Positions 32,701 to 64,000 of a stretch of DNA of 64,000 nucleotides are shown here, in pieces; position 1 is the first letter of the stretch, and each line of letters opens with the position of its first letter. This DNA is from an uncultured Poribacteria bacterium. GTDB taxonomy: Bacteria > Poribacteria > WGA-4E > WGA-3G. Location: contig OY282383.1 in NCBI GenBank assembly GCA_958295855.1, positions 183,178-247,177 on the forward strand, given 5' to 3'. A program made the position numbers and the translations under genes. The notes under the pieces are model-generated. The model did no database searches. It worked only from the letters and a program-made list of their open reading frames with translations, and was not told where the DNA came from.

Positions 32701-35700
32701 TCAACAACTCACCTGGGAGCAATGGGCACTCAGGGTGGTTAACCTGGGTGACCTTGTAAGCAGGTGCATCAAGCTTTGCGCTAGAGGGATGAACCCCCTG
32801 CTTTGCAGCGGCAGACTGACCGATTGTGTTCATCATATCTACTTTGTTGTCGGTTTCCCATGCAGAAGATGGACTGTCGGAGCCGATGGCTATCCAGAGA
32901 TTTCCTTCTTGGCGCACTGTGCTGCCGGGGCGGAAATCGCGGAACCGCACGGTTCCCTTAACTTTCGCAAGAACTTTGCGCTGGCGCGCTTCTGAAATGG
33001 CCTCAACAGCCCCACCGGTGTGGAACGTCCGCATCGTTAGCTGCGTGCCGGGTTCACCAATGGATTGTGCAGCGATGATACCGATGGCTTCGCCGACATT
33101 GACAAGATTGTTGGTCGTCAAATCAATGCCGTAGCACTTTGAACAGACACCTTCGTCGGCTTGACAGGTGAGTACGGAACGCACTTTTACGACTTTGATG
33201 CGCGCGGCCTCAATCTGTGTGGCTTCTTCCTCGGATATCAATTGCTCGCTGGCTTTAAGCACTTGGCCTGTATCTGGGTGGATGATGTCTTCGGCGGCGG
33301 TTCGCCCTCTGATTTTAAATGCAAGGCTGCCGCCTTCAGTTGTAAACTTCTGAATGCTGTTCAGTGTCTTGCAATCTTCAGTGGTAACGCGGACATCTTG
33401 GGCAACATCTACTAACTTCCGGGTTAGATACCCGGATGCGGCGGTTTTCATTGCGGTATCTACTAAGCCTTTGCGCGAGCCGTAGGTGGAGTTGAAATAG
33501 TCTAACACATCTAAGCCTTCGCGATAGGAGGCGGTTATCGGTGTAGAGAGAATGTTGTTGCTCTGATCGGATTTCAAGCCGACAATTGCACTAATTTGCA
33601 TAAATGGGTTCTTCCGCGCGCGCGCTCCACTATCCGCCATAATATGCACTGGACTGAAACCTTTGACGGTTTCAGCGCCTATCTCTACGCCATCAGCATC
33701 TACGTTTGGATGAATCTTACGCGAGTCGCCGCGTTCAACGAGTGATGTCTCTAATTCGGGTAAGGCGGAGAACATCCTTTTCTCAACCTGTTCAATCGCT
33801 TCGAGCCAGATGCGAATTCGCTCATTCTCTAACTCGCCTGTGTCTGTAGCAGAGGTTGTCGCAAGGAGGTTATCCACTTCGGACTGGGCTTTGCTCACTA
33901 AAGCATCCCGGTTGTCGGGCCTGAGGTAATCTGTTATGCAGGGCGATATGCCGCTCAGGGTTGCATAGTGGAAGGCAAGTTTTTGGATTTCCTCAAGCAT
34001 GTTGACTGTAACACGCGTTCCTAATTCGTTGAAACAGTCGTAGACTATCTTGGATAACTCGCGTCCGCTGGCTTCGGCGTTGAAAAAAGGCACCTGCTGC
34101 CGGGAATGCTCGTCTATCCACGCATCCTCGGACGAACTTCCTTTGATTTTCTTGAGTTTATCTGGCAGTACTTCGTTGAAAATAACTCTGCCTACTGTCG
34201 TGAGTATGGGGCTGGCTGTGGCACGCGGCCTGCTACTTTCGTGCTTGCTACTTTCCCCAAAAAAGAGTTGGAGGCTATCGTGTAGTTTGAGTTGGCCGGC
34301 TGCGTGCGCGGCGATAACTTCTTCTGTATTTGAATAGCGACGGTGGTACCAAGGTTTTTGGCGGAGCTCATCCAGTCGCGATTCGGAGATGGCTCCTACC
34401 GATTGCGCGATAAACTCATGCAACAACTTTGCATCCTCAGCATGTCCCGGCAGTTCCTTCGTCAGGAAACTCGGCCCTAGCACCATGTCAAGCTCCGGTA
34501 CTGCAATTGGACCGCCGTGGGATGGCTTGAGGATATTATGACTGCTGAGCATTAGCAGCTTTGCCTCTGCCTGTGCCTCTACTGTGAGTGGCACATGCAC
34601 TGCCATCTGGTCGCCGTCAAAATCGGCGTTGAATGCCTTACACACAAGGGGAGGTATCCGTATCGATTTGCCTTCTACTAACACTGGCAGAAATGCCTGA
34701 ATGCCAAGCCGATGCAACGTGGGTGGGCGATTCAGTAACACGGGATGGTCGGCTATGACTTCCTCTAAGACTTCCCAGACAGGTGAATTGGACTCCACAT
34801 GCTCGGCGATGTGCTTCGCACGTTTTATCGTCTGCGTATAGTTATACGCTTGCAGCCTCTCGATAATAAATGGCTTGAACAATTCTACGGCCATTCGCTT
34901 GGGCAAACCGCATTGGTGGAGTCCCAGTTCGGGGCCGACGACGATGACGCTTCGCCCAGAGTAATCGACGCGTTTTCCGAGCAGATTCTGACGGAAGCGC
35001 CCGACTTTGCCTTTGAGGATATCGGAGAGTGACTTGAGCGGTCGGTTGCCAGGGCCGGCAACACGCCTGCCGTGCCGCCCGTTGTCAAAGAAGGCATCAA
35101 CGGCTTCTTGTAACATCCGTTTTTCGTTGCGCAAAATGACTTCGGGGGAACGGAGCTGTATTAACTTACGCAGCCGGTTGTTACGATTGATGACGCGGCG
35201 ATACAGATCGTTCAAGTCGCTTGTGGCAAAACGCCCGCCTTCGAGGGAAACAAGGGGCCGTAAGTCCGGGGGAATGACGGGTATCACATCCATAATCATC
35301 CACTCGGGGCGCTGTTCAGATGCGGCAAAGTCAGACAACTGTTTGAGCTGTTTGGATATCTTGAGCTTTTTCTGATGGCTTGTTGTTTCCGAAAGCAGTT
35401 CGGTGAGTTTCTCTTTCTCTGCCTGCAGGTCGATGCTGTTCAGAATCTCAGAAATGACTTCGGCGCCAGTCCCTGCGCGAAATTGACCGGGGTACTGGTG
35501 TTTCGCTTGCTCGTATTCTAATTCTGTTAGGACCTGACGCGGCTGCAGCGGACAGTCCGGGTCGCTGACGGATACAACAACAAAGGCTTCAAAATAGATG
35601 ATGCGTTCTACTTGGCGTGAGGAGAGATTACAAAAGGTGCCGATTCGTGACGGTATGCCTTTGAAGAACCAGATGTGGGAAACTGGGGCGGCGAGCTGGA

Positions 35701-36058
35701 TATAACCGAGGCGCTGCCTGCGTACGCGCTGCTGCGTTACCTCAACTCCACACCGGTCGCATATCACTCCCTTGTGCTTTATCCGTTTATATTTCCCACA
35801 ACTACACTCAAAGTCTTTTTGCGGGCCGAAGATGGCTTCGCAGAATAGCCCTTCCGGTTCTGGCCGGAGGGAGCGATAATTAATGGTTTCTGCCTTCCTC
35901 ACTTCGCCGCAGTTACACCTTCCCATCTCCGGACAGATAAAGGGTTCTCTTGTGGATTGGGATGTGCTACGACGCTTACAACAGGTTTGCTTGGCTAATG
36001 CTTTTATCTCCTGGGGTGAGGCTATTTTTATCGAAATACTGTCAAACGCTGTTTTCAT
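29753..36058 (-). CDS. rpoC: DNA-directed RNA polymerase subunit beta' with a very large trigger-loop insertion (SI3-like, about 800 aa) containing SBHM-type repeats, an HNH motif and in-frame repeat elements
   Basis: 2101 aa. Canonical beta' blocks: NADFDGDQM and MRTFHTGGA, then an insertion, then GIPRVTELFEARRP. RBS AGGAA within the upstream repeat. Confidence 0.95.
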   Translation of the reverse strand: MKTAFDSISIKIASPQEIKALAKQTCCKRRSTSQSTREPFICPEMGRCNCGEVRKAETINYRSLRPEPEGLFCEAIFGPQKDFECSCGKYKRIKHKGVICDRCGVEVTQQRVRRQRLGYIQLAAPVSHIWFFKGIPSRIGTFCNLSSRQVERIIYFEAFVVVSVSDPDCPLQPRQVLTELEYEQAKHQYPGQFRAGTGAEVISEILNSIDLQAEKEKLTELLSETTSHQKKLKISKQLKQLSDFAASEQRPEWMIMDVIPVIPPDLRPLVSLEGGRFATSDLNDLYRRVINRNNRLRKLIQLRSPEVILRNEKRMLQEAVDAFFDNGRHGRRVAGPGNRPLKSLSDILKGKVGRFRQNLLGKRVDYSGRSVIVVGPELGLHQCGLPKRMAVELFKPFIIERLQAYNYTQTIKRAKHIAEHVESNSPVWEVLEEVIADHPVLLNRPPTLHRLGIQAFLPVLVEGKSIRIPPLVCKAFNADFDGDQMAVHVPLTVEAQAEAKLLMLSSHNILKPSHGGPIAVPELDMVLGPSFLTKELPGHAEDAKLLHEFIAQSVGAISESRLDELRQKPWYHRRYSNTEEVIAAHAAGQLKLHDSLQLFFGESSKHESSRPRATASPILTTVGRVIFNEVLPDKLKKIKGSSSEDAWIDEHSRQQVPFFNAEASGRELSKIVYDCFNELGTRVTVNMLEEIQKLAFHYATLSGISPCITDYLRPDNRDALVSKAQSEVDNLLATTSATDTGELENERIRIWLEAIEQVEKRMFSALPELETSLVERGDSRKIHPNVDADGVEIGAETVKGFSPVHIMADSGARARKNPFMQISAIVGLKSDQSNNILSTPITASYREGLDVLDYFNSTYGSRKGLVDTAMKTAASGYLTRKLVDVAQDVRVTTEDCKTLNSIQKFTTEGGSLAFKIRGRTAAEDIIHPDTGQVLKASEQLISEEEATQIEAARIKVVKVRSVLTCQADEGVCSKCYGIDLTTNNLVNVGEAIGIIAAQSIGEPGTQLTMRTFHTGGAVEAISEARQRKVLAKVKGTVRFRDFRPGSTVRQEGNLWIAIGSDSPSSAWETDNKVDMMNTIGQSAAAKQGVHPSSAKLDAPAYKVTQVNHPECPLLPGELLSEKQYTENAQRYKGFETETWQYEVTAVSERAKVNNGYSVLGQHFDYSSDAWKFLSEKYRDRAGWQCEQCGVALKDDKQFLHVHHRRGTKHNEPRDLAALCIGCHAEQPGEGHQKFSSSDEYRQFTEKYGNVRQPSETLVSEIDSLEPEIEETFFQHVEKLSEAAVSEHACHLQEGARLSQAQYDKARKQYGFGRFVTQKYRVTQVLHPDIAVTPRELLTLEKADELKAKMHTGFDGEWLSRDSETGQLFTETELASVGATQGGESEKGEEGNSLQSRAKPFSPQSGEHTHSARDSHFERVYRITERTRADFPYEVGEEVSASDIASWLTPFDLESKPVYVMHTEITGDANSGLDPAEYQIGRELTERAYEEARLKYRAFQVKELDAPKHVVTAVYHPEFPLKVGDVLTTDAARKEHKRFPGFNVQKLKHRVIHVHHPDCTLKPGDLLSDGEEKQFRATFPGITASSAVNTMGPFEAERLYHVTAVNHPECPLQPGELLTQKASSAHRRQYKGFEVQRYYEEVGAISESRQRLSEAQYKSLRKEDPEISGKFTSLYVVVSVHHPDLQLEVGTELTEKEYRSYQRQYKAFDVERVNQVTRDERTDSSVPQFDPGHILGEKEYRKLQKENQRKTYTVTDVFHPNCGHTVGEVLTEEAYKTTFAQYAGFETAELDMRMHIEIVNSQGAYVPHLIPLGYSFSVEEGDSIDAEDTLAELHEKTANRDIVAGIPRVTELFEARRPKRENAAEIAEIEGHVQAVGTKAGVPTYRIIDEGHTSRVYAIPDEKRRVTEGDWVDAGQPLTDGFLNPHDILRIGRTLINGVPVEGEEAVWAYLVDEVQKVYGARVINDKHIEAIVRQMLTKIRVTESGDTAFYPNEEVARDKFQRQNSAIDTAGGTPATGEPILQSISKASLSTDSFISAASFQQTTKVLTDAAVSGQTDRLFGLKENVILGRLIPAGSGFSDFQNIEVAYQGQPLDTASDDDD
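32380..32515 (-). other. HNH nuclease motif embedded in the rpoC trigger-loop insertion
   Basis: Motif: CEQCG, then LHVHHRRG, then N, then LCIGCH, spaced as in HNH domains. No intein splice-block signatures nearby. Confidence 0.6.
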
Positions 36059-36462
36059 ATTTTCGCTATTCCTTGCGGTGTAATCAGGTTGTAAGGTTCA
36101 TCGAGGGTTACACTGTAGATCTCGCTGGAGGTTTTCGCTATTCCTTGCGGAGTAATCAGGTTTTCGCTATTCCTTGCGGTGTAATCAGGTTGTAAGGTTC
36201 ATCGAGGGTTACACTGTAGATCTCGCTGGAGGTTTTCGCTAAAAGGGTTCGAAGGTGCCAAGAATTTTGACACCTTGTTCCTGTCTGTAATTTGCGGAGA
36301 ATTCAGCATGGGCAGGCACAAGGCACTGCCCCTACAGATACAAGCCTTGCATCAAAAACCTCCGACGAGATCTCTAATGCGATGACAACTACATAATGCC
36401 AATGGTATTTGCCCCTGCTTTGCAGGGGTTTTATACCAATTCGAGTTCTCCGCAAGGAATGA
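36059..36462. repeat. rpoB-rpoC intergenic mosaic: two copies of TTTTCGCTATTCCTTGCGGTGTAATCAGGTTGTAAGGTTCATCGAGGGTTACACTGTAGATCTCGCTGGAGG, plus GGGCAGGCACAAGGCACTGCCCCTACAG and a palindromic element
   Basis: Direct reading of the sequence. Provides the rpoC SD and the rpoB stop codon. Confidence 0.85.
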
Positions 36463-39400
36463 CTAAAGGTCTGAGTCGCGATTGAGTGTCACGTTCAGAC
36501 CAAGGCTCTGGAGTTCTCGCACGAGCACGTTAAACGATTCGGGCGTGCCGGGCGGGTTTGGGTTCAGCCCCTTAACTATGGATTCATAGATTTCCGATCT
36601 GCCTGCCACGTCGTCCGATTTGAGGGTGAGCATCTCCTGGAGCGTATGCGCAGCGCCATAGGCTTCAAGTGCCCACACTTCCATTTCACCGAGTCGCTGG
36701 CCGCCATGTTGCGCCTTACCGCCCAGAGGTTGCTGGGTGACAAGCGAGTAAGGGCCTGTGGAGCGCGCATGCATCTTGTCTGCTACAAGATGGTTCAGTT
36801 TAAGGAAATAGACGTAGCCGACTGTGACTTCTTGGGCAAAGGGTTCACCTGTCCTGCCATCATAAAGTACGCTTTTCCCTGTCTTTTTACTGCGTTCGGG
36901 GAGGTTCGTTTTTCCGAGCAGTTCAAAGATTTCAGTCTCTGTTGCTCCGTCAAATACGGGGGATTCTGCGCGTATGCCTAATGCGTGGCACGCCCATCCG
37001 AGGTGAATTTCTAAGATTTGCGCGACATTCATTCGTGATGGGACGCCTAAGGGGTTCAGCACGATTTCAACGGGTGTGCCATCTGGCATATAGGGCATAT
37101 CTTCAGCTGGCAGGATTTTTGCCACAACGCCTTTATTGCCATAACGGCCTGCCATTTTATCGCCAACGGAAATGGGACGTTTACTCGCGATATAAACTTT
37201 GACGCGTTTGATAACACCGGGTTTGAGTTCATCTCCCATCTCCAATTGCTTGAGGGCGCGTTCTTTCTCCTCTGTGTAGGCGGCTATCCTGCCTTGCGCC
37301 ATCTCCTCAACGCGGCGAATGTGTTCCATTGCGGCAGCATCCGTTACGCAAACGGATGATAACGCTATGCCAGGTGTGTCTAATAGCTCAGCTGTCACTG
37401 TGTCACCCGCAGCAAACGACGTTGGGGCAGCACTTTGTTCGGAATTCCCGCCCTGCCCCTTTGCCTCTTCACTGCTTTGCTTCCCGCCCGGTTTCCCATC
37501 ATGGGCAACCAGGAGGATAGCCTCCGCGTTGGTATGTTCCCCACTTTGCTTCCCGCCCTGCCCCTTTGCCTCTTCACCCTTTTCCCCATCGTGCCTAACC
37601 TGTGCCACTACAGGCAATGCAAGTTCACAACCAAGGAGCATGTTGCGTATTTCTTCGTCCTTCCGGTGGCGTATGGATGCGATGTGCGTCCTCCACGTCT
37701 CCTCGCTCTGCTTACGTTTGGATTCATAGCGCAATTCTTCAATTCTTGATGCGCCTGTTTCCGAACGTGTCCAGCCGCCGCGGCGTTGCAATCCATCTGG
37801 CTTTCGGGAAAACACTTTGACATCAATTACTATGCCTTCAACGCCGGGGCGGATGTAGGTGGAGGCATCGCGGACATCTCGTGCTTTTTCGCCGAAGATG
37901 GCGTGCAGCAGTTTTTCTTCGGGGCCATACTCACTTTCGCCTTTGGGCGTAATTTTTCCCACGAGGATACTGCCGGCACTGACAACACTGCCAACGCGGA
38001 TGATGCCTTCCTCATCAAGCTGCAAAAGGCGTTGCTCGCTCATGTTCGGAATGTCGCGCGTTATCTCCTCTGGGCCCACCTTCGTTTCGCGTGCCTCTAC
38101 TTCGACTTCTTCAATATGAATAGAGGTAAAGGTGTCCTTGCGGATGAGGGTTTCACTAATGAGGATAGAGTCCTCATAGTTGTGCCCGCCCCAGGGCATA
38201 TAGGCGCACAAGATATTTCTGCCGAGGGCGAGTTCACCTCCGTCGGTGGATGTGCCGTCGGCAATAACATCGCCTGCTTGCACTTTATCGCCTACAGAAA
38301 CGATTGGATGCTGGTGGATACAGGTGCCACTGTTACTGCGCTTGAAAGTCTGGAGTTTGTACTGGTCGTATCCCATTTCGCTAAATCCATGCTCGCCGGT
38401 GTCGGTATGCAGCACTTCGCCGGTGTGTATGAGGATTTCGTCAGCGGAGATACTTGCGACGGTGCCGCTGCGGATGGCGGTTCGGAGGGCTCCGGAGTCC
38501 AGTGCGGCGCGGGTTTCCATGCCTGTAGCTACAAGAGGGGCTTCCGGACGGATGAGGGGGACGGCTTGGCGTTGGTGGTTGGCTCCCATCAATGCGCGGT
38601 TCGCGTCTTCGTGCTCGAGGAACGGAACAAGGGAGGCAGAAACGCCAACTATCTGTTGCGGCGCGATGCCAACATAGTCAATTTCAGTGGATTTCGTTTC
38701 TTTGAATTCTATGACGTCGCCCTCTTTGGCATCGTTCCAGCGTCGCATGGCACGGACAGAATAGCCATGGCGGTTTTTCTTTCCTGCTTTATGGAAAGCA
38801 TCTGCGGATGCAATGGTACAGCCCAGCTCTGCATCTGCAGTCAAATACTCAATCCGGTCAGTGAGCTTACCCTCAACAATGACTTGATAGGGCGTTTCCA
38901 AGAACCCGTAGCGATTGACGCGTGCGAATGTAGCGAGCGATACAATCAGCCCGATTGAGGGCCCTTCTGGGGTTTCAAGCGGACATACACGCCCGAAATG
39001 CGTTTCGTGAACGTCGCGGACAGCTGCGGTTGCCCTGTCGCGATGTAGTCCGCCGGGCCCGATTGCGGAGATGCGGCGTTTGTGCGTCAACTCATCCAGG
39101 GGATTGATTTGTTGCATAAACTGCGAGAGTTGGTTAGAGCCAAAAAACTCACGGAGTGCCATCATGAGTGGTTTGGGGTTCACCAATGCGCCGGGTGTTG
39201 CTTTGGCGCGGTCCTTGAGGATATCGACAGCACTGAGGCGTTCGCGTGTCGTTCTACGGATTTGGAATAATCCCATTCTGAATTGGTTTTCTAGCAGTTC
39301 CCCGATAACTCTGACGCGCCGATTTTCGAGATTGTCCTGGTCGTCCTTGGGTACAAGTTTGTTCTGCACCTGTATGAGGTATGCCAGTGTTGCGGTGATA

Positions 39401-41039: not shown

Positions 41040-41739
41040 ACTCTGGTGGTGGGCAGGCACAAGGCACTGCCCGTACGGCGCAATGAAATCCCGAGAATAA
41101 AAAAGTTGTTTGCTTTTCGCGCACAACTTGGCTTGCAAGCTTCGCCAAAAAGTGGTGGGCAGGCACAAGGCACTGCCCCTACGGACGCGCCGCCTTTTAA
41201 CCTATTGGCAATAGCATAACAGAATATTATACACTATAATTAGGGGAAAGTCAAGAAAAAATGCATTTTTGTTATTCCTTGCGGAGTAATCAGCATAAGT
41301 AAGAAATAAAAAAGTTGTTCATAAAAATTCACAACTTGGTATGAAACCCCTGCAAAGCAGGGGCAAATACCATTGGCAAGACACATCCAGCAATGCACTG
41401 TAGCTCTCGTTGGAGGTTTCTTATGCAACCTTTCGGGCCAATGGCTGCCCGCCCACCCGTTTCCGTATTGTGGCTAAAAAAGGGGGTGCTTGTTTTTGAC
41501 GTTAATCAAGCTAGGGCATTTAGTTTTCAGTAGTTTTGAGTAAGGGGCGTGGTTGGGTGAGGATTAAGAATTTTCGTCTATGCCTAGTATTTTGATTGGA
41601 TTATGTGGTGTTAATGGCATTGGAGCTCTCGTCGGAGGTTTTGGTCTATGTCTAGTATAATGTGGTATAAAGGTTGACACACCACGTTAACTTGGTATAC
41701 TGTATTAAGGTACGGAAACCCCGTGCTACGGGAGACAAA
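41040..41739. repeat. Repeat-dense intergenic region (GGGCAGGCACAAGGCACTGCCC x2, palindromic element, CCCGCCCACCCGTTTCCG, GGGCATTTAGTTTTCAG, and others)
   Basis: Module families shared with other intergenic regions. Confidence 0.8.
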
Positions 41740-42270
41740 ATGGGAACAATTACAGTACCAGCACCTGTCAAAGCTATCATCGGTGTGTTGACAGGGGACG
41801 CGCTTCTTCTGCCAACTGTCTATCAGGAATTGACAGCTCAGCTCGGGCACATTGACTTCACGAGTGAACTTTTGCCTTTCACCAGCACAACCTATTATGA
41901 AGCTGAGATGGGACGAGGGCTCCAACGGCAGTTTATTAGCTTTGAAAGGCTCATCGATGCAGGGACATTGGCAGAGATGAAACTGTTTACAAATCAGGTG
42001 GAGCAGGCGTTTGCAGAAGAGAAAACCTCGCGACGGCGCGTCAATTTAGATGCAGGTTATGTGTGCTCAGCGAAGTTGGTACTCGCCTCAACGAAAGATC
42101 ACGCGCACCGTATCTACCTCCGCGCCGGTATCTATGCGGAAATGACGCTCCGATTCTATCGCAAAACCTTCCAACCGTGGGAATGGAGTTATCCTGACTA
42201 CCGTTCCCCGGACTACATCGCTATTTTTAATCACATTCGCACAATCTATAGGGAGCAACTCAACGCATGA
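41740..42270 (+). CDS. Hypothetical protein (possibly DUF4416-like)
   Basis: ORF 41674..42270. Start moved to MGTITVPAP (AAAATG). The stop overlaps the next gene's ATG (ATGA). Confidence 0.35.
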   Translation: MGTITVPAPVKAIIGVLTGDALLLPTVYQELTAQLGHIDFTSELLPFTSTTYYEAEMGRGLQRQFISFERLIDAGTLAEMKLFTNQVEQAFAEEKTSRRRVNLDAGYVCSAKLVLASTKDHAHRIYLRAGIYAEMTLRFYRKTFQPWEWSYPDYRSPDYIAIFNHIRTIYREQLNA

Positions 42271-43574
42271 ACAGATATTATGAGAGAAACCTCACCGCTA
42301 GTCCCAGTGACTCGGCTGGAAGACAAGAAGGGTGGAAGAAGGGAAAAAACACCGCCCCCCAACCTTACTGTCTTCCATACTGTCTGCCATTTTTCCAATC
42401 TTCAAAAATACTAGTCTGTTGCATCATTTGTGCTTTTTGGTTAGTGGTATTTACCCCTGCTTTGCAGGGGCAGATACCCGGTCAAGGTTTTGCCGGGGCG
42501 CAATCGACTGAGTCACCCCGAGCGCGGGCGCGCGAGCTCGGCATCTATATCGGGAGCCTTCCTACCGGTGAGTACAACGCAATCACCGACGTGCCCGGGG
42601 TCAAAGTAGGACACGTCACCCTGAAGCAGGGGGAGTCAATTCGCACTGGTGTCACCGCTATCCTTCCGCGCGATGATATTTGGGAAGCGCGTCTGTTTGG
42701 CGCAGCACATACCATTCATGGCAACGGTGAAGCCACCGGCATCGCCCGAATTAATCAAGCCGGGTGGATTGAGTCCCCGATTTTGTTGACAAATACCCTG
42801 AGTGTCGGGGCTGTTCACGATGGTGTTGTCCGGTACATTGTCAAGCGGTATCCGGACAATAACATTGTGCTGCCGATTGTGGCAGAGTGTTACGATGGCG
42901 GCTTGAACGACATCAGCGGGCTCCATGTAACTGCACAGCATGCCATTGAATCCATTGAGAACGCCACCTCCGGTAAGGTAGCAGAGGGCAGTGTAGGCGG
43001 CGGTACAGGTATGCGATGCTACGGGTTCAAAGCCGGTATCGGTACTGCCTCGCGGGTACTCCCACCAAACAGGGGCGGATGGAAAGTCGGGGTACTCGTC
43101 AACGCAAACGGCGGACGACGACATCAGTTACGCATTGATGGCGTGCCGGTGGGTAAGGTACTTGATGATGCCCAGCAGAACCCAGGCAGGGACGGCTCGT
43201 TTATCATCGTTATCGCGACGAACGCGCCGTTAACGCATCGGCAGTTGAAACAGCTGGCGATGCGTGCAACGCACGGCCTCGCCCGCACAGGCACACCAAG
43301 CACAGATGGCAGTGGTGAGTTCGTTATCGCGTTTTCTACCGCCAATATTTTTCCACGCGGCACAGAAACAGGTACCTTTCACATCCAGATGGTAGTCAAC
43401 TCACGCTTGAATTCTCTCTTTCAAGCTGTCATTGAGGCAACAGAGGAGGCTATTGTGAATTCAATGACGATGGCAACCACAACCACTGGCCGCAACGGCA
43501 GAACAATGCACGCGATTCCATTGGATGGGTTGCAACAGGTGATGCAGCAGTTTTCGTCATTCCTTGCGGAGTAA
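42267..43574 (+). CDS. Peptidase family S58 / P1 (DmpA-like L-aminopeptidase / D-Ala esterase-amidase family)
   Basis: 435 aa with a DmpA/ArgJ-like fold signature. A palindromic element sits inside the N-terminal hydrophobic region. The C-terminal FSSFLAE* is encoded by a repeat module. Confidence 0.55.
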   Translation: MNRYYERNLTASPSDSAGRQEGWKKGKNTAPQPYCLPYCLPFFQSSKILVCCIICAFWLVVFTPALQGQIPGQGFAGAQSTESPRARARELGIYIGSLPTGEYNAITDVPGVKVGHVTLKQGESIRTGVTAILPRDDIWEARLFGAAHTIHGNGEATGIARINQAGWIESPILLTNTLSVGAVHDGVVRYIVKRYPDNNIVLPIVAECYDGGLNDISGLHVTAQHAIESIENATSGKVAEGSVGGGTGMRCYGFKAGIGTASRVLPPNRGGWKVGVLVNANGGRRHQLRIDGVPVGKVLDDAQQNPGRDGSFIIVIATNAPLTHRQLKQLAMRATHGLARTGTPSTDGSGEFVIAFSTANIFPRGTETGTFHIQMVVNSRLNSLFQAVIEATEEAIVNSMTMATTTTGRNGRTMHAIPLDGLQQVMQQFSSFLAE

Positions 43575-43826
43575 TCAGCATGGGTATGAAACCCCTGCTT
43601 TGCAGGGGCAAATACCATTGGCAGGATAGTTCTGACGGGCAGGCACAAGGCACTGCCCCTACAGTAGATCTCGTCGGAGGTTTCTGATGCAAGTTTTTTA
43701 ATGCTTAATTAGCAGGGAACACACTACAACTCATGTCGGAGGTTTCTGACGCAATGTTCGTAGGGGTGGTGCCTTGTGCCTACCCACATACTGGAGTATA
43801 TCGCGATTCGGACATCGCTCCTACGT
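43555..43826. repeat. Intergenic mosaic (TTTTCGTCATTCCTTGCGGAGTAATCAG, palindromic element, GGGCAGGCACAAGGCACTGCCCCTACAG x2, GATTCGGACATCGCTCCTACG)
   Basis: Module families shared across the window. Confidence 0.85.
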
Positions 43827-50164: not shown

Positions 50165-50551
50165 AGTGCTTTCTGCGCGCCCCTGAAGCCGGGCGGAGAC
50201 AGGGCTCCGCCCTTACAATTCAAAGCCATTTGATATGCGCCTGCGCGGGCAGGGCGGACCGCATCAGATGCGCCTGGTTTGTGCTCCGCGCAGAGTAATC
50301 AGGAAGTTTAACCACTATTGAAAATAGTGGCAAACGTCAGGATAGTTCTGACGGGCAGGCACAAGGCACTGTTTCCCCTACAGAGTAGATGTCGTTAGAA
50401 GTTTCTTATGCAACCTTAATTAGCAGGGAGTACTCTAGAACTAATAAGAAACCCGATTTTGAACCGGGTATCCGCCCCTGCTTTGCAGGGGTAAATACCT
50501 CATGCGGAAAAATCGGAGCAGAAACCGAATTGATGAAAGACTGCTTGTTAA
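50165..50551. repeat. Intergenic mosaic (CCACTATTGAAAATAGTGG hairpin, GGGCAGGCACAAGGCACTG, CCTTAATTAGCAGGGAG, palindromic element, CATGCGGAAAAATCGGAGCAGAAACCG)
   Basis: Module families shared with 46000-46090 and 57360-57480. Confidence 0.8.
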
Positions 50552-53826: not shown

Positions 53827-53900
53827 CGGGGCGTGGCGCAGCCCGGAAGCGCGCTTGAATGGGGTTCAAGAGGTCGCTGGTTCGAATCCAGTCGCCCCGA
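53827..53900 (+). tRNA. tRNA-Pro (anticodon GGG)
   Basis: 74-nt cloverleaf. Acceptor stem CGGGGCG/CGCCCCG with C1:G72 (typical of tRNA-Pro). D-stem GCGC/GCGC. Anticodon stem CTTGA/TCAAG with loop ATGGGGT. T-arm GCTGG-TTCGAAT-CCAGT. Discriminator A. Confidence 0.85.
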
Positions 53901-57359: not shown

Positions 57360-57775
57360 CAATTCGGTTTCCGCTCCGATTTTTCCGCATGAGGTATTAA
57401 CCCCTGCAAAGCAGGGGCGGATACCCGGTTCAAAATCGGGTTTCCGGCAAGTTTGTAGCGTGTTCCCTGCTAATTAAGGTTGCATAAGAAACCTCGGACG
57501 AGAGCTACTGTAGCGGCAGTGCCTTGTGCCTGCCCATCTACATCGTCAGAACACTCCTGCAACCTGATTACTCCGCAAGGAATAACAAAAAGACGAGATC
57601 TGCCACAACGTCACAACAACGAATAATTAAGCGTTAAAATACTTGCATAAGAAACCTCCGACGAGAGCTACTGTAGCGGCAGTGCCTTGTGCCTGCCCAT
57701 CTACATCGTCAGAACACTCCTGCAACCTGATTACTCTGCAAGGAATGACAAAAAACTCTGCAAGGAATGACAAAA
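57360..57775. repeat. Intergenic mosaic between fabH and fabD, including two copies of GAAACCTC(C/G)GACGAGAGCTACTGTAGCGGCAGTGCCTTGTGCCTGCCCATCTACATCGTCAGAACACTCCTGCAACCTGATTACTC(C/T)GCAAGGAAT(A/G)ACAAAAA
   Basis: Duplicate unit of about 110 bp at 57478-57590 and 57645-57758. The last copy supplies the fabD SD (AAGGAATGACAAAAATG). Confidence 0.85.
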
Positions 57776-58756
57776 ATGCAACACGCCTTTATTTTTCCAG
57801 GACAAGGTTCGCAAAAAGTTGGCATGGGCGCTGAATTGGCACGAACCTATCCAATTGCCGAGGACGTTTTTGATGAGGCAGAGACAGTTTTAGGCAGACC
57901 ACTACGGCAGCTCTGTTTCCACGGCCCTGAGGCAGAACTAAAGCGGACAGAAAACACGCAACTTGCCATTTTGGCCTGTAGTGTTGCAACGTTGCGGGTG
58001 TTAGCACAATTAGGGGTTGTGCCGAAAGTAGTTGCAGGGCACAGTTTGGGAGAGTACTCCGCGCTCGTGGCGGCCGGTGTCCTTGAATTTGCCGATGCAT
58101 TGCAGTTAGTGTGCGCACGCGCACACTTCATGGCAGAAGCCGGTGCCAATGGTATAAACCCCTGTTTACAGGGGCAAATACCACCGCAGAACGGCACCAT
58201 GGCAGCAATCCTCGGCATGGAAACGGAACAACTCCAAAATCTTTGTGAGAAAGCTAATGGTGTTGTTAACATCGCCAATTACAACTGCCCCGGGCAATTG
58301 GTAATTTCCGGAGAAGTTGATGCTGTCAACCATGTTATTGCGCTCGCCAAGGGTGAAATCGGCGCAAGACGCTGTCGCACTTTGCCCGTAAGTGGCGCGT
58401 TTCACTCACCGTTGATGGCACCTGCACAACAAAAGTTCGGCGAGGCACTGAATGCAGTGACGTTGCATCCGCCTCAAGTCGCTATCGCGATGAACGTAAC
58501 AGGCGAGTTTGCCACAGATGCAGATAATATCCGAAGCCTCTTGTTTCAACAGATAACGCAACCCGTTCAGTGGGAGAAATCTCTGCACACTATGGCGAAG
58601 GCCGGCATCTCACATTTTGTGGAGGTTGGCCCGGGGAAAGTCTTGTGTGGCTTAGTGAACCGGACGCTCCGTGGCAGCAGTACCGCACATATTGAAGATA
58701 TCGACAGTCTTGAGGTTTTTCGTCATTCCTTGCGGAGTAATCAGGACGCAAGATAG
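57776..58756 (+). CDS. fabD: Malonyl-CoA:ACP transacylase
   Basis: ORF 57767..58756. Start set at MQHAFIFPGQGSQ. GHSLGEYSA active site. In-frame palindromic element at 58151-58182. The last 12 codons come from a repeat module. Confidence 0.9.
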   Translation: MQHAFIFPGQGSQKVGMGAELARTYPIAEDVFDEAETVLGRPLRQLCFHGPEAELKRTENTQLAILACSVATLRVLAQLGVVPKVVAGHSLGEYSALVAAGVLEFADALQLVCARAHFMAEAGANGINPCLQGQIPPQNGTMAAILGMETEQLQNLCEKANGVVNIANYNCPGQLVISGEVDAVNHVIALAKGEIGARRCRTLPVSGAFHSPLMAPAQQKFGEALNAVTLHPPQVAIAMNVTGEFATDADNIRSLLFQQITQPVQWEKSLHTMAKAGISHFVEVGPGKVLCGLVNRTLRGSSTAHIEDIDSLEVFRHSLRSNQDAR

Positions 58757-59075
58757 CTCCCACAATACACTGTAGATCTCGTCGGAGGTTTTCGTCATTC
58801 CTTGCGGAGTAATCAGCATGGGTATGAAACCCCTGCTTTGCAGGGGCAAATACCATTGGCAAGATAGTTCTCACAATACACTGTAGATCTCGTCGGAGGT
58901 TTTCGTCATTCCTTGCGGAGTAATCAGCATGGGTATGAAACCCCTGCTTTGCAGGGGCAAATACCATTGGCAAGATAGTTCTCACAATACACGGTAAATC
59001 TCGTCGGAGGTTTTCGTCATTCCTTGCATGAGAAATCTCCGACGAGATCTGCCACAACGTCACAACTACAACCTT
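58717..59075. repeat. Tandem composite repeats of about 113 bp (TTTTCGTCATTCCTTGCGGAGTAATCAGCATGGGTATGAAACCCCTGCTTTGCAGGGGCAAATACCATTGGCAAGATAGTTCTCACAATACACTGTAGATCTCGTCGGAGG), two full copies plus partials
   Basis: Unit starts at 58717, 58789, 58902 and 59015. Confidence 0.9.
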
Positions 59076-59108
59076 AGAACTAGGCAATGACAAAAGATTA
59101 GGAACGAC

Positions 59109-60181: not shown

Positions 60182-60322
60182 CGTCACATTTGACGTATGG
60201 GCAGTGCCACAGTTGCCAATAACCCAACGAAGTTGGGCTATTGCCTTGTGCCTGCCCGCAACTGAACTGGCAATTGCCCCTGCTTTGCAGGGGTTAATAC
60301 CACTAAAAAAAGGATCCGTCTC

Positions 60323-61564
60323 GTGGAGCGTGTAGTTATTACAGGAATCGGCGTTCTCAACGCCATTGGCAACTCGAAAGACGAATTTTGGGAGGCACTT
60401 GCCATCGGTAAAAACGGAATCGGACCTTTAACCCATTTTGATGCCACCGATCATCGCACCCAAATCGCAGGTGAGGTTAAGAATTTTCAACCGGAAAAGT
60501 ACCTGGATAGGAAAGCTACGTCCCGGTACCCGCTTTTCATTCAGTATGCCCTTGTCGCAGCAATCATGGCGTTTGAAGACGCAGAGCTGGAGCTGTCCAA
60601 GGTGAACCCTTACCGTGCGGGAGTCCAAATCGGTTCAGGGATCGGCGGCATCGGTGTCCTTGAAGACAACGCAAAAATCCTCGCTGAAAAGGGGGCCAAA
60701 CGCGTTAGCCCATTTCTTGTGCCGTACATGATCATTAATATGGCAGCGGGCCTGGTCTCCATCCATTTTAATCTCAAAGGACCCAATTCTGCGTCCGTCA
60801 CCGCATGTGCAAGCGCGAACCATTCTATGGGTGATTCGTTTCGCATGATTCAACGCGGTGAAGTAGATGTCATGTTTACTGGCGGTACAGAATCGGCGAT
60901 TACGCCTTTAGCTTTCGCGGGATTCGGTTCCATGCGGGCGATGTCCGCGCGAAACCATGAACCTGAACGCGCCTCGCGCCCCTTCAACAAGGACAGAGAC
61001 GGATTTGTCATGGGCGAAGGGGCGGGAATATTAATCCTGGAATCGCTATCGCATGCTAAAAAGCGGGGTGCCCATATCTATGCCGAAATAATCGGTTATG
61101 GTATGACTTCAGATGCTCACGATATGGTGAGCCCGCCTGAAAACGGTGAAGGCGCCGCGAAAGCGATGGAATTCGCACTCCGAGATGCTGGATTGCCCTT
61201 AGATGCCGTCGATTATATCAATGCTCACGGTACCTCTACCCCAATTGGCGATGTCGCGGAAACCAACGCCATTAAAACCCTTTTCGGCGAGCACGCTTAC
61301 AACATTCCGGTAAGTTCTACTAAATCTATGGTTGGACATCTGCTCGGCGCAGCGGGCTCCGTTGAACTCATTGCCTGCTTAGGCGGAATGGCGAAGGGCT
61401 ATCTGCCACCTACTATCAACTATGACATGCCAGATGAAGCCTGCGACCTGGATTATGTCCCGAACGAAAGCCGCGAGGCAAAGATTGACATCGCGCTCTC
61501 CAATGCGTTCGGATTCGGAGGACACAACACCTCTATCGCCATCCGCAAATTTTCAGGCCTGTAG
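60323..61564 (+). CDS. fabF: 3-oxoacyl-ACP synthase II
   Basis: 413 aa KAS-II. Active-site Cys (ACASANHS), HGTST and GHLLGAAG motifs. Confidence 0.9.
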
Positions 61565-61704
61565 GAGCCATCTCCGAGTGGCATTTAGCCCCTGCAAAGC
61601 AGGAGTATTATCCTTATCGCGACTTAGGATGACATCCATAATCAAGGCCCACTAATTGTTATCTCTGGAAACCTCGGTGGTGATGCCAAACCATTGGAGA
61701 CTCT

Positions 61705-62244
61705 ATGCCTTTAGCATACATCGGCTTCGGAAGCAACATCGGCGACAAACAGAAGTACATTCATAACGCCATCAGGGCCTTATCAAAAGTGGAGGGAATC
61801 GACCTGCAAAAGATTTCCTCCCTCTACAAAACCGACCCCGTAGGATATGAGGCGCAAGCACAATTTCTGAACGGTGTTGCTGCAATTCAAACCTGCCTTC
61901 CTCCACTCCCATTGTTACACACCCTGAAAAACATAGAAACCGAAGTGGGCAGACAACACCGCACCCGTTGGGGCCCAAGAGAGATCGACCTGGATGTGCT
62001 GATGTATGGGGATGTGTGTCTCCGTACGCCTCAGCTCGTTATTCCTCACCCACAGATGCACCTTCGCGGTTTTGTGCTGGTCCCGCTCGCCGACATCGCA
62101 CCGGATGTTGTGCATCCTGTTTTTCAAGAAACCATTTCGTCATTGCTTAGCTCCAGCAGTTTCCGCAGTAGTTGTAACGCAGTGGAAAAAGAGCAGAAAC
62201 CATTGGAACTAGGCATGGACAAAAAAACGAGATCTTCAACGTAG
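61705..62244 (+). CDS. folK: 2-amino-4-hydroxy-6-hydroxymethyldihydropteridine pyrophosphokinase (HPPK), with a C-terminal extension of about 30 aa partly encoded by a repeat copy
   Basis: HPPK motifs: [37 protein letters not shown]. The tail ...[11 protein letters not shown] is read from a CTAGGCATGGACAAAAA repeat copy. Confidence 0.8.
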
Positions 62245-62280
62245 TGTAGGGGTAGGGTTTCCTTGTGCCTACCCTTAACA

Positions 62281-62318
62281 CTACAGAACGCAGTCAACGC
62301 GCTAGGCATGGACAAAAA
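62281..62318. repeat. 38-bp element CTACAGAACGCAGTCAACGCGCTAGGCATGGACAAAAA (left, direct orientation)
   Basis: Partial copies at 62208-62244 and 62598-62637. An inverted copy at 63189-63226. Confidence 0.85.
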
Positions 62319-62342
62319 TGGAGGGCAATACGCTGAAAAAAC

Positions 62343-62371
62343 TTGCAATCTCCACTTCTATGTGGTATAAT
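62343..62371 (+). promoter_or_regulatory. Near-consensus sigma70 promoter: TTGCAA, 17-bp spacer, TGgTATAAT (extended -10)
   Basis: Reads into a 270-nt leader upstream of the Uma2 gene that contains only tiny ORFs. Confidence 0.5.
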
Positions 62372-62643
62372 TTACAACAAAGAGCAATGTTTTTTCCACG
62401 GGTCCCAACTATATGAAGCCGGTAAATATGGTTTTTCTAATCTCCATGAAGAGCACCGGAGTTACAAATAAAGGAGCCGCGTGAGTCCTGAATCAACAAG
62501 ACTTCGTAAGAGTTTTGTAGTACACGCTCAAAAATACGCTTGATACATAGACAAAAAATCAGGAATCTCCGACGAGATTAAAAATGCCATTACCACTACA
62601 TAACGCAGTCAACGCACTAGGCATAGACAAAAAACTCGCTAAG

Positions 62644-63153
62644 ATGACGGTAGAAGAATTCCTTGAAAGCGGCTTAGAGGGATATGAATACGTGAAAGGA
62701 GAATTAGTGCCGATGCCGCCTACCTCATTAGAACACGGGGATATTAGTCTAAACCTCCTTTTGCCTTTAGGTTCATATTGTCGTGAAAATCAACTCGGGC
62801 GTGTCTATAGCTCAGATACAGGCTTCCGAGTCGGCGAACGGGTACTGATGCCAGACATAGCTTTCATCTCAACAGACCGGCTTCCGACTGACCGGAGCAA
62901 AGCTTCCCCGGTTCCCCCAGACCTCGCCGTTGAGGTAGTTTCTCGGACAGATGCATTGCACAGTGTTGAGGAAAAAGCATTTGCCTACCTAGAGGCAGGC
63001 ACACAACTCGTATGGGTGCTTAAGCCACGGTCAAAAACAGTGACGGTGTATCGTTCGGAAACAGACATCACGCTGCTCACACGAAATGACACTCTCACCG
63101 GTGAGAATGTCATCAAAGGGTTTTCTTGTCGGGTAGCCGAAATTTTCCAATAA
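62644..63153 (+). CDS. Uma2-family (DUF820) PD-(D/E)xK endonuclease
   Basis: ORF 62584..63153. Its first 20 codons lie in a repeat copy, so the start is set at MTVEEFLESG. Family hallmarks: PDIAFIS...PDLAVEVVS...K. Confidence 0.6.
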   Translation: MTVEEFLESGLEGYEYVKGELVPMPPTSLEHGDISLNLLLPLGSYCRENQLGRVYSSDTGFRVGERVLMPDIAFISTDRLPTDRSKASPVPPDLAVEVVSRTDALHSVEEKAFAYLEAGTQLVWVLKPRSKTVTVYRSETDITLLTRNDTLTGENVIKGFSCRVAEIFQ

Positions 63154-63188
63154 TAGCAACCTTGCAAGCGTGCCAAAAAAATAGCGTG

Positions 63189-63226
63189 TTTTTGTCCATG
63201 CCTAGTGCGTTGCCTGCGTTCTGTAG
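63189..63226. repeat. Inverted copy of the 38-bp element (TTTTTGTCCATGCCTAGTGCGTTGCCTGCGTTCTGTAG)
   Basis: Reverse complement of 62281-62318 with 3 mismatches; together the two copies bracket the Uma2 gene. Confidence 0.85.
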
Positions 63227-63347
63227 TCTTAACCGCGTTGAAGATCTCGTCGGAGTGTTTTTACGCATTCGCTAATTATTTAACAACAACTTACTCATTT
63301 TCAAGTTTTCAATGCGTGCTGACTTTCTCCTAATTAATGGAAAAAAC

Positions 63348-64000
63348 ATGAACATCCACGAATACCAAGCCAAAGCAATTCTAAAATCTTACGGGGTGAA
63401 CACGGGCCCAGGCAACGTCGCTGAAACGCCTGAGCAAGCGGAAGCGGTTGCAAAGCAGCTTCATTGTGCCCAATACGTCGTCAAGGCACAGATTCACGCT
63501 GGCGGGCGCGGAAAGGGCGGCGGCATCAAACTCGCCAAGAACATCGCCGAAGTTAGACAACACGCGGAAGCTATCCTCGGCATGCAGTTGGTAACACCCC
63601 AAACCGGCCCCGAAGGAAAACGTGTCCGGAAAGTATTCATCACCGAAGCCGCTGAACTTGAGAAAGAGTTCTACCTCGCCATTCTGCTGGATCGGGAGAC
63701 CTCAAAACTCACTTTAATAGGAAGTGCCGAGGGGGGTGTCAACATTGAGGAGGTTGCAGCCCGAACCCCCGAAAAGATTATTAGGTTGCAGATTGATTCC
63801 GACTTCGGTTTGGTGCCATTTCAAGCAAGACAATTCGCGTATAGATTGATAACCTCTGCGCTATATCACGAAGTCATCCCCAAAGCCACCGAGCTCATTC
63901 TATCACTTTACGCTGCCTTTACCGCATGCGATTGCTCGTTAGTAGAGATTAACCCATTGGCAATTGTCAAGACAGATGATGGACTGGACATCGCCGCAAT
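63348..64000 (+). CDS. sucC: Succinate--CoA ligase (ADP-forming) subunit beta, 5' partial (continues past the window end)
   Basis: MNIHEYQAKAILKSYGV...AQIHAGGRGKGGG, the ATP-grasp N-terminus typical of SucC. Confidence 0.85.
   Translation, partial: MNIHEYQAKAILKSYGVNTGPGNVAETPEQAEAVAKQLHCAQYVVKAQIHAGGRGKGGGIKLAKNIAEVRQHAEAILGMQLVTPQTGPEGKRVRKVFITEAAELEKEFYLAILLDRETSKLTLIGSAEGGVNIEEVAARTPEKIIRLQIDSDFGLVPFQARQFAYRLITSALYHEVIPKATELILSLYAAFTACDCSLVEINPLAIVKTDDGLDIAA

Follow-up and report, generated by a model that had tools for sequence, protein, structure and literature searches.

The locus between folK and sucC in the genome of an uncultured Poribacteria bacterium, where a gene of the Uma2 family is bracketed by an inverted pair of short repeats, raises the question of whether these repeats are the ends of a small mobile cassette, as proposed in the initial annotation, or reached the flanks of the gene in another way. 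The window, i.e., the whole stretch of DNA that was analyzed, is 64,000 nucleotides long; fabF lies upstream of folK, and sucC downstream. The genes of the interval are the following:

61705-62244, + strand, folK (HPPK) ORF; Pfam HPPK, E 4e-40, domain at residues 5-133 of 179
62584-63153, + strand, Uma2-family (PD-(D/E)xK fold) ORF, 189 aa; PF05685, E 6e-36
63348-64000, + strand, 5′ part of sucC (succinyl-CoA synthetase beta); Pfam ATP-grasp_2, E 3e-74; runs off the end of the window

The Uma2 Gene

The identification of the central ORF as Uma2 was borne out, and the gene is intact: its match to PF05685 scores 123.9 bits, against a cut-off of 27, and covers profile positions 7-171 of 172, while every column without variation in 13 close homologs (H31, P70-D71, E97 and K111 among them) is retained. 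Homologs are numerous (2060 with E<=1e-10), many of them being about 80% identical and labelled Poribacteria. Solved members of Uma2/DUF820 (PF05685) comprise TT1808 of Thermus thermophilus (1wdj), 3ot2, 6okh and 9y1l, and relatives of the window protein in the PDB were matched at E values from 1e-13 to 2e-7. The Uma2/DUF820 family has reportedly been placed in the PD-(D/E)XK superfamily; judged from its sequence, the window product is a putative nuclease-fold protein and a member of the Uma2 family. PADLOC lists relatives of this protein solely as the defense candidate PDC-S03, which is matched at 5e-18, and a literature search on Poribacteria and Uma2 returned nothing specific.

The conserved core starts at ATG 62644 (M21, MTVEEFL) and comprises 169 aa, with the Pfam match beginning at residue 29. 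Homologs share sequence only from M21 and have instead N-terminal extensions of the MNAQE.. type; in Poribacteria paralogs an N-terminal extension of 20-30 residues is usual, and its position is occupied here by repeat-derived sequence. The proposal that a repeat forms the first 20 codons of Uma2 was thus correct in that these codons are encoded by one of the repeat copies (copy C, below); because the similarity to Pfam and to homologs starts downstream of them, they are not a conserved part of Uma2.

Repeats Around the Uma2 Gene

The repeats were located by a pattern search with the 38-nt element, allowing up to 3 mismatches and using shuffled sequence as the control, for which the expected number of matches was 0. 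The copies and the longer units that contain them are listed below; L030 and L031 are the corresponding loci of two sister strains.

62208-62226, + strand, copy A, 19 nt, a tail-only partial of the 38-nt module; absent from L030 and L031
62227-62318, + strand, full composite repeat unit: head fragment ACGAGATCTTCAACG, hairpin module at ~62241-62284, and 38-nt copy B
62281-62318, + strand, 38-nt copy B; pattern search, 0 mismatches
62567-62633, + strand, copy C, the left arm, a 67-nt repeat element in place of the usual Uma2 N-terminal extension
62596-62633, + strand, 38-nt core of copy C; pattern search, 3 mismatches
63189-63255, - strand, copy R, the right arm, a 67-nt repeat element
63189-63226, - strand, 38-nt core of copy R; pattern search, 2 mismatches

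The arrangement first described, with direct repeats on the left and an inverted one on the right, was confirmed, with the qualification that two left copies are full and the third is a 19-nt tail only. The 17-nt tail CTAGGCATGGACAAAAA is found again at 62209-62225, within the tail of the folK ORF, in agreement with the earlier view that a repeat copy (62208-62226) provides the C-terminus of FolK. Indeed, the last ~16 folK codons (from 62194) are read from repeat DNA, and FolK of relatives aligns only to residues 1-149/163; the protein has 179 aa here vs 167 and 148 aa in the two sister strains, the sequences diverging after 62193. The repeat-derived FolK tail is strain-specific.

The inverted pair is longer than first noted, since its arms (62567-62633 and 63189-63255) extend over 67 nt and are 82% complementary; they lie 10 nt and 35 nt from the Uma2 core, and their outer ends form a perfect 10-nt inverted pair, CTCCGACGAG and CTCGTCGGAG, which extends to 12 nt as CTCCGACGAGAT and ATCTCGTCGGAG. 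A second, separate inverted pair, perfect over 15 nt, joins 62227-62241 to 63236-63250. The hairpin module folds with -29.9 kcal/mol (z -3.0), and the single 67-nt element has no fold of its own (z about -0.2 to +2.1). The head of this element, CTCCGACGAGAT, and its tail, GGCATGGACAAAAA, are not complementary, so that one element contains no terminal inverted repeats. The outer flanks of the two arms, AATCAGGAAT (62557-62566) and TGTTTTTACG (63256-63265), have no direct repeat in common that could be a target-site duplication, and no transposase or recombinase is encoded between the arms.

Promoter and Leader

The regions that precede and follow the bracketed gene contain these features:

62332-62376, + strand, sigma-70-type promoter; -35 at 62343-62348, TG at 62363-62364, -10 at 62366-62371
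62372-62566, + strand, leader from the promoter to copy C; no supported ORF or RNA family
62491-62544, + strand, leader patch resembling the 5′ leader of a Uma2 paralog (positions 3922-3975 of L032)
63256-63347, + strand, spacer from copy R to the sucC start; no + strand promoter-like site

The order fabF-folK-sucC is conserved in Poribacteria relatives, sucC having been located in 23 of the 26 folK loci, with a folK-sucC spacer of between 130 bp and over 5 kb. Uma2 was found in none of these 26 other Poribacteria folK loci within the flanks that were fetched, and its presence is thus lineage-specific.

The promoter scan gave TTGCAA-17-TATAAT with an upstream TG at 62343-62371, which matches 10/12 consensus positions. 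The promoter noticed initially is therefore real, but it is not specific to a cassette: in 23 relatives the motif GAAAAACTTGCAAT precedes sucC by 92-126 nt, as against 1012 nt here, and a profile built from the relatives' sucC promoters finds its best window site at 62332-62376 (25.3 bits, E 5e-7; next site, 13.3 bits). The window promoter is accordingly orthologous to the sucC promoter that is conserved in Poribacteria, an assignment that rests on position and profile score because the consensus is common to other Poribacteria promoters, e.g., upstream of pgk in relatives. Since the promoter is that of sucC, Uma2 is best seen as a lineage-specific insertion inside the sucC leader and, lying downstream of that promoter, it is most likely driven by it. 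The only other + strand promoter-like site before sucC has a 9/12 match and lies inside the 3′ end of Uma2, and no terminator was found between Uma2 and sucC.

The leader measures 212 nt to ATG 62584 and 272 nt to the conserved ATG 62644 and contains short ORFs only, as had been stated at the outset. Its segment 62372-62566 is 95.9% identical in L030, and the spacer 63256-63347 is 100% identical in L031 and has an additional CCCCTGCAAAGCAGGGG module in L030. Besides the promoter, no significant remnant of the ancestral sucC leader was found; three patches (GCGTGAGTCC at 62477, ACATAGACA at 62545 and AATGCGTG at 63312) are non-significant and were therefore not used as evidence. The leaders of other species are too diverged to define the junction, the promoter being the only part matched by the profile, and of the genes that other species have between folK and sucC (among them a ~529-aa AAA-ATPase-like ORF and a ~140-aa ORF) the window has no remnants. 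No Rfam family was found for the leader or the repeats, either by an E-value search of 61400-64000 or at the gathering threshold over the whole window, where the sole match is a tRNA at 53827-53900.

The leader patch at 62491-62544 is 74% identical over 54 nt to the leader of the L032 paralog (E 8e-5 in 466 kb of loci) and is the sole non-self match of the leader. Because this homology lies to the left of the left arm, the arm seems to interrupt, and not to bound, the Uma2-derived DNA; the start of the non-ancestral DNA is nearer the promoter, between 62377 and 62490. Homology to the Uma2 gene at the ppdK locus of the same species is limited, at the nucleotide level, to 62633-63152. An empty site was not found in any close relative, and for this reason we infer the exact boundaries of the insertion and the order of events.

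The same region could also be read in another way, with the promoter and the leader having arrived together with Uma2 and the ancestral sucC promoter being lost or located elsewhere. Indeed, the L032 paralog has an extended -10 promoter of its own (TTGACA-N17-TGGGATAAT) and a long leader, which part of the window leader (62491-62544) resembles, and promoters in these genomes generally contain the GAAAAACTTG motif. However, the sucC profile fits the window promoter far best in the 64 kb, including the upstream CTGAAAAA, while the alignment to L032 contains no homology in the promoter region and no alternative promoter is present between 63154 and sucC; we regard this reading as unlikely.

Uma2 Loci and Strains Compared

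The Uma2 comparison set consisted of nine other contigs, representing about five genomic contexts, two of them from the same species; a metagenome scan with Uma2 gave 5 close loci only. The check suggested in the initial annotation, a search for the inverted repeat beside other Uma2 paralogs, found no inverted bracket in the loci examined (L032/33, L034-38, L058-62), among which are L032, the closest paralog, and L058, the copy at the ppdK locus, both from the same species. The unit formed by copy C, Uma2 and copy R is present in 3/3 strains of the species and absent in the 26 other species.

The contig index contained no exact match to the FabF, FolK or Uma2 (189-aa and 169-aa forms) of the window, and the two sister strains were identified through cluster members. 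The three strains (the window, L030 and L031) share the promoter, leader, copy C, Uma2 and copy R; Uma2 is 98% identical in the sister strains, and the flanking genes are 97.5-99% identical. The region from folK to the promoter has a different mosaic in the sister strains, in which other modules replace the folK-adjacent copies of the window: the block 62227-62318 is missing there, and its reverse complement matches their right arm at 91% over 93 nt, an arm that contains an extra 30-nt hairpin module. The best L030 match of copy R is the copy upstream of pgk (94%), the same 67-nt element being found immediately upstream of the pgk ATG in both L030 and L031. In the presence/absence comparison across strains that was also proposed initially, Uma2 stays in place together with its two arms in each of the three strains, and the repeats around them change. 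The Uma2 insertion is ordinary; the turnover of the repeats between strains is a more notable by-product.

The Intergenic Repeat Family

The 38-nt element belongs, as one of several modules, to a mosaic intergenic repeat family that is specific to this species. The modules TTTTCGTCATTCCTTGCGGAGTAATCAGG, CACTGTAGATCTCGTCGGAGGTTT, CCCCTGCAAAGCAGGGG and GGCAGTGCCTTGTGCCTGCC occur 13-17 times each in 64 kb, and of their 58 matches 50 are intergenic, in a window that is 84% genic (16% intergenic); the family is present in most of the intergenic gaps. Repeat units of 101, 111, 163 and 187 nt are assembled from the same modules, and diverged copies of the 67-nt element are located at 41571-41640, 36348-36403 and 59025-59095. 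The modules are confined to the window, L001, L030-33 and L058-59, with 0 matches in 26 other Poribacteria species (~260 kb of loci), and the 27-nt repeat core had 0 matches in a collection of 185,579 species genomes that does not include the host species. The 38-nt subfamily proper is restricted to the folK-pgk neighborhood within ~100 kb of same-species DNA, copies elsewhere being ~70-76% identical. Both the head (CCTCCGACGAGATCT) and the tail (GCAAGGAATGACAAAA or CTAGGCATGGACAAAA) are new modules, and the family is previously undescribed; a literature search on Poribacteria and intergenic repeats found nothing specific. Repeat copies lie directly upstream of the Uma2, pgk and fabG-like starts. 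The idea that the modules donate ribosome sites at a fixed orientation and distance to start codons was dropped because they occur in both orientations.

Origin of the Bracket

The whole account that we consider probable is that Uma2 was inserted into the sucC leader and that repeats colonized the locus later, leaving the bracket as a by-product. The ancestral layout would have been fabF, folK, a variable spacer, the sucC promoter, a leader of ~95 nt and sucC; in this one species, a paralog of the multi-copy Poribacteria Uma2 gene would have become fixed in the sucC leader, downstream of the promoter, bringing along part of its 5′ leader. Uma2 would then most likely be transcribed from the sucC promoter, and sucC by read-through. 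Later, one subfamily of modular (head, hairpin, tail) repeats may have colonized the locus: copy C would have split the Uma2 leader from the core ORF, displacing the usual 20-codon N-terminal extension, copy R would have come to lie, inverted, just past the Uma2 stop codon, and another copy upstream of pgk, while further copies, in this strain only, would have settled between folK and the promoter, rewriting the C-terminus of FolK. On this account, the inverted bracket arose incidentally, through repeats piling up at gene boundaries, and does not represent the ends of a Uma2 transposon. The locus reveals no mobile cassette of a new type: a multi-copy gene with a nuclease fold sits in the leader of a housekeeping gene, amid ordinary interspersed repeats. 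It offers a clear case of an inserted, selfish-looking gene standing between a housekeeping gene, sucC, and its promoter.

A role of the two arms in the transcript, which would be compatible with this account, is quite unlikely: copies C and R might pair into an RNA stem burying the Uma2 start, whose cutting by RNase III would limit expression of the nuclease and free the sucC mRNA. The predicted C:R duplex has -84.7 kcal/mol vs -25 +/- 4 for shuffled partners, copy C holds ATG 62584 and ends 10 nt before ATG 62644, both arms are retained in all the strains, and Uma2 and sucC are not separated by a terminator. On the other hand, such a duplex energy would be obtained with any two inverted copies of the repeat, strains differ by a 30-nt insertion that the right arm tolerates, and the single element is devoid of structure. 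There is also a small chance that the repeats are an active, lineage-specific mobile system that rewrites gene termini and 5′ UTRs on strain-level timescales, in which case inverted pairs could capture or relocate genes like Uma2, or Uma2 could target the repeats.

That C-Uma2-R (62567-63255) is itself a mobile cassette, with the 67-nt arms recognized by a trans-acting transposase or recombinase as in a MITE pair, is very unlikely. The inverted pair is real and long, its outer ends form a perfect pair over 10 nt that extends to 12 nt, the arms adjoin the Uma2 core ORF as a cargo model would predict, and Uma2 is absent from the locus in 26 other species. Against this, the outer ends lack a target-site duplication, the right arm varies between strains by a whole hairpin module, and the unit stays fixed in each of the three strains, with the neighboring repeats changing around it; moreover, the leader homology with the Uma2 paralog lies outside the left arm, so that the terminal repeats miss the limits of the inserted DNA. 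What the initial annotation had named as counting against a cassette was also observed, since the arms are missing at every other Uma2 locus examined and the element is found at unrelated sites, standing alone in front of pgk and also, in this strain, in front of the promoter. Finally, it is highly improbable that Uma2 is regulated by an sRNA or a leader peptide (the 20-codon GTG ORF at 62481-62543) encoded in the 200-270-nt leader, as had been considered initially: a good Shine-Dalgarno-like AAAGGAG lies 8 nt before GTG 62481 and the leader is ~96% conserved in sister strains, but this conservation is not above that of the neighboring DNA, the sole between-strain substitution in the short ORF is non-synonymous, and the leader has no Rfam match, no terminator after it and a fold z of only -2.0.

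Relation to Known Repeat Systems

Like the MITE pairs and composites that mobilize genes (e.g., integron mobilization units), the window arms are inverted noncoding repeats flanking a single gene. Unlike them, the single element has no terminal inverted repeats, and neither a target-site duplication nor, at the loci examined, a second copy of the unit is present; in addition, the arms vary in modules between strains and the leader homology of the cargo reaches past the left arm. The 67-nt element was also ruled out as a MITE in its own right, having no terminal inverted repeats within it and no target-site duplication. The Correia (NEMIS) elements of Neisseria are intergenic, lie in 5′ UTRs, are co-transcribed with neighboring genes and can form RNase III-sensitive stems. 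The window copies resemble them in their position directly upstream of the Uma2, pgk and fabG-like starts, whereas the terminal inverted repeats and the TA duplications of Correia elements have no counterpart in the window element.

BOX elements of Streptococcus pneumoniae, built of boxA-boxB-boxC modules, and the BIME/REP clusters of enterobacteria are mosaic interspersed intergenic repeats; the pneumococcal repeats are reportedly covered by a published survey. The window repeats have no sequence relation to them, and their host is an uncultured sponge symbiont, but they are likewise short (~70-190 nt), multi-copy, strongly intergenic and species-specific, are made of few modules in variable number and order, including a stem-loop module, and occur in either orientation, sometimes in tandem and overlapping gene ends. 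Thus, the features that define mosaic intergenic repeats, i.e., dispersed intergenic copies, a modular structure with a stem-loop and restriction to a lineage, are all found in the window family. A dense, species-specific mosaic repeat family that alters the FolK tail and the Uma2 N-terminus is thereby documented in uncultured Poribacteria; it may be used as a strain marker, and it is a warning for gene calling in these metagenome-assembled genomes.

A Uma2 gene inserted in the sucC leader

The Uma2 ORF lies between folK and sucC, with FabF encoded upstream and SucC downstream (both Pfam assignments), and the gene family proposed by the initial annotation is confirmed by its Pfam match. The features of the region are the following.

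61705-62244, HPPK/folK ORF (Pfam)
62281-62318, + strand, copy B of the 38-nt repeat, exact match
62343-62371, + strand, promoter TTGCAA-17-(TG)TATAAT, consensus match 10/12, reached by no other + strand site in the region
62584-63153, Uma2 ORF (Pfam PF05685, E 6e-36)
62596-62633, + strand, 38-nt core of copy C (left arm), 3 mismatches
63189-63226, - strand, 38-nt core of copy R (right arm), 2 mismatches

Gene order at this locus, fabF-folK-sucC, is shared with 26 other Poribacteria species, none of which has Uma2 there (0/26); Uma2 is a lineage-specific insertion. In these species folK and sucC are separated by anything from 130 bp to more than 5 kb, a spacer that often holds an ATPase-like ORF of about 529 aa together with small conserved ORFs. 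By sequence inspection alone, this ORF (MRWFETRGPVYPEDNY...PRQTGKT..., loci L003-L028) resembles an AAA-ATPase with a nuclease-like C-terminus, and a short remnant of it is present at one locus (L011).

The motif GAAAAACTTGCAAT-N17-TA(G/T)(A/T)ATAAT stands 92-126 nt 5' of the sucC ATG at 23/23 loci where sucC was located, with all extra spacer material upstream of it; the window copy of the motif stands 1012 nt 5' of sucC. The best match of the 23-locus promoter-leader profile in the 64 kb is at 62332-62376 (25.3 bits, E 5e-7; runner-up 13.3 bits), and a promoter scan found no other convincing + strand promoter ahead of sucC. Therefore, the consensus promoter first noted ahead of Uma2 is present, but it is the promoter of sucC, and Uma2 sits within the sucC leader.

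The leader between this promoter and Uma2, previously considered a candidate sRNA, gives no sign of being one: it has no Rfam match, no terminator was found, and its fold z-score is -2.0. The sole Rfam match at the gathering threshold within the window is a tRNA gene (53827-53900). Within the leader, a patch at 62491-62544 shows homology to that of a Uma2 paralog in the sister genome (L032; 74% over 54 nt, E 8e-5); the leader has no other non-self match. Since this patch is located left of the left arm, Uma2-derived DNA seems to extend beyond that arm, in which case copy C would interrupt the Uma2 unit rather than mark its boundary.

Uma2 paralogs and the inverted repeats

Uma2 homologs and folK loci alike place the source in Candidatus Poribacteria, whose Uma2 family is large (2060 homologs at E<=1e-10, many about 80% identical). 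The window ORF is a regular member that retains every invariant residue; its PDB relatives are 9y1l, 6okh, 3ot2 and 1wdj, and PADLOC enters relatives as defence candidate PDC-S03. Most homologs carry an N-terminal extension of 20 or 30 residues (MNAQE...), in place of which the window gene has 20 repeat-encoded codons.

The closest homologs (84-86%) all share a conserved ppdK-Uma2-cupin-GFO/IDH context, which argues that at least that paralog is stable and vertically inherited, not wandering. This context recurs across several Poribacteria (L034-L036, L058-L062); on two contigs (L061/L062, 1549-2370) an IS200/IS605-type pair (Y1_Tnp and an OrfB_IS605/TnpB-like gene) separates ppdK from the conserved Uma2 ortholog, and a metagenome locus (L037, ~100-1019) has tandem Uma2 genes, 30 nt separating the 3' end of the first from the next. 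A ppdK-context Uma2 also occurs in the same species (L058/L059, recognised from repeat modules); its nucleotide homology to the window gene covers 62633-63152 only, and its locus has one diverged element copy upstream and none downstream.

The repeat reported around Uma2 is real, with 38-nt copies at 62281 and 62596 (+) and 63189 (-), zero matches in shuffled sequence, and its 17-nt tail again at 62209-62225, within the final codons of the folK ORF. The inverted pair exceeds the 38 nt originally described, the arms 62567-62633 and 63189-63255 being 67 nt long and 82% complementary; a second, perfect pair of 15 nt is formed by 62227-62241 and 63236-63250. The bracket, which was expected beside other Uma2 paralogs, is absent at L058/L059, and neither element nor bracket occurs at L032 (an 80% paralog) or at five metagenome Uma2 loci (0/5). 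Among the Uma2 loci examined it is unique to the window's copy, and no target-site duplication is found at the outer flanks of the arms. Thus, of the interpretation in the initial annotation the insertion stands, but on the loci examined the inverted-repeat-bounded mobile cassette does not, and the promoter is that of sucC.

A mosaic family of intergenic repeats

In a low-stringency self-comparison of the window, the 38-nt element turned out to be a single module within a mosaic repeat system that fills most intergenic gaps from ~15.9 kb on and is dense from ~27 kb. Examples of repeat-filled gaps, recurrent modules and diverged versions of the element at unrelated sites are listed below.

27188-27780, 29573-29751, 36117-36467, 41158-41640, 43552-43784, repeat-filled gaps
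50354-50491, 57401-57775, 58718-59095, 60237-60293, 61589, further repeat-filled gaps
CCTCCGACGAGATCT, head module
GGCAGTGCCTTGTGCCTGCC and CCCCTGCAAAGCAGGGG, two hairpin modules
GCAAGGAATGACAAAA, tail module
41571-41640, - strand, diverged element
36348-36403, diverged element
59025-59095, diverged element just 5' of a fabG-like start

The CTAGGCATGGACAAAA first noticed is a variant of the tail module. Units are joined tail-to-head with periods of 101, 111, 163 and 187 nt, and 50/58 module matches fall between genes in a window that is 84% genic. The hairpin module folds (z -3.0), but the 67-nt element by itself does not (z -0.2 to +2.1). Modules were seen solely in same-species loci, with none in ~260 kb from 26 other Poribacteria species, and the 27-nt core has no match in a species-genome collection that does not include the source species. 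In behaviour the family resembles mosaic interspersed repeats of the BOX/BIME type, sharing all the defining features tested; identities as MITEs or as a composite transposon failed their tests.

Between two divergent ORFs, 27188-27780 consists of three tandem 187-nt units, each with tail, head and hairpin modules and a promoter-like TTGAAT-17-TGGTAAAAT, which could affect expression of the neighbours. The gaps around fabD/fabG-like genes hold three 111-nt (58718-59095) and two 163-nt (57401-57775) tandem units, whose tail modules at 57738-57753 and 59080-59095 end 13 nt ahead of a start codon. Near-perfect CCCCTGCAAAGCAGGGG copies inside long ORFs (31869-31885 and 32795-32811 in 29753-36058; 42454-42470 in 42267-43574) could reflect in-frame repeat insertion or ORF over-calling.

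Sister strains

The proposed presence/absence comparison used two sister-strain loci from ENA sample ERZ19489113: L030, which lies on a 5.5-Mb contig, and L031. Each has the same Uma2 gene in the folK-sucC interval, and the three-way alignment with the window retains the promoter, leader, copy C, Uma2, copy R and the sucC-proximal spacer; identity between window and L030 is 98.0% for Uma2, 99.0% for fabF, 97.5% for folK and 98.8% for sucC. The folK-to-promoter segment is wholly different: the partial copy A in the folK tail, the hairpin and the perfect copy B are missing from both strains and replaced by other family modules. The repeats that flank Uma2 are part of a genome-wide mosaic family subject to turnover between strains. 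The FolK ends consequently differ, the protein having 179 aa in the window, 167 in L030 and 148 in L031 (ORFs 61705-62244, 4028-4531 and 4006-4452), with different modules abutting residue ~163; the 148-aa form may also be due to a homopolymer indel. The L031 Uma2 (5001-5570) has three compensating indels (+2, -1, -1) relative to the others, which may be artefacts of long-read assembly, not true differences.

The right arm of both strains contains an additional 30-nt hairpin module, and the left composite of the window, 62194-62335, is the reverse complement of this sister-strain right arm (91%). Another 67-nt element lies directly 5' of the pgk start codon in both strains, past the window end, and therefore copy R and the pgk copy also bracket sucC. 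In L030 (5847-10570) sucC is followed by pgk, proS and then a sucD-like gene, so the succinyl-CoA synthetase subunits are not adjacent.

Proposed history

The proposed sequence of events begins with the fixation, behind the sucC promoter, of a Uma2 paralog that would have brought along part of its own leader; repeats would have landed later at its boundaries, one of them taking the place of the N-terminal extension, and Uma2 and sucC would today be co-transcribed. In such a transcript, long-range pairing of copies C and R is predicted at -84.7 kcal/mol, versus -25 +/- 4 in shuffled controls; masking of the Uma2 start, or a processing site, is a possible secondary consequence.
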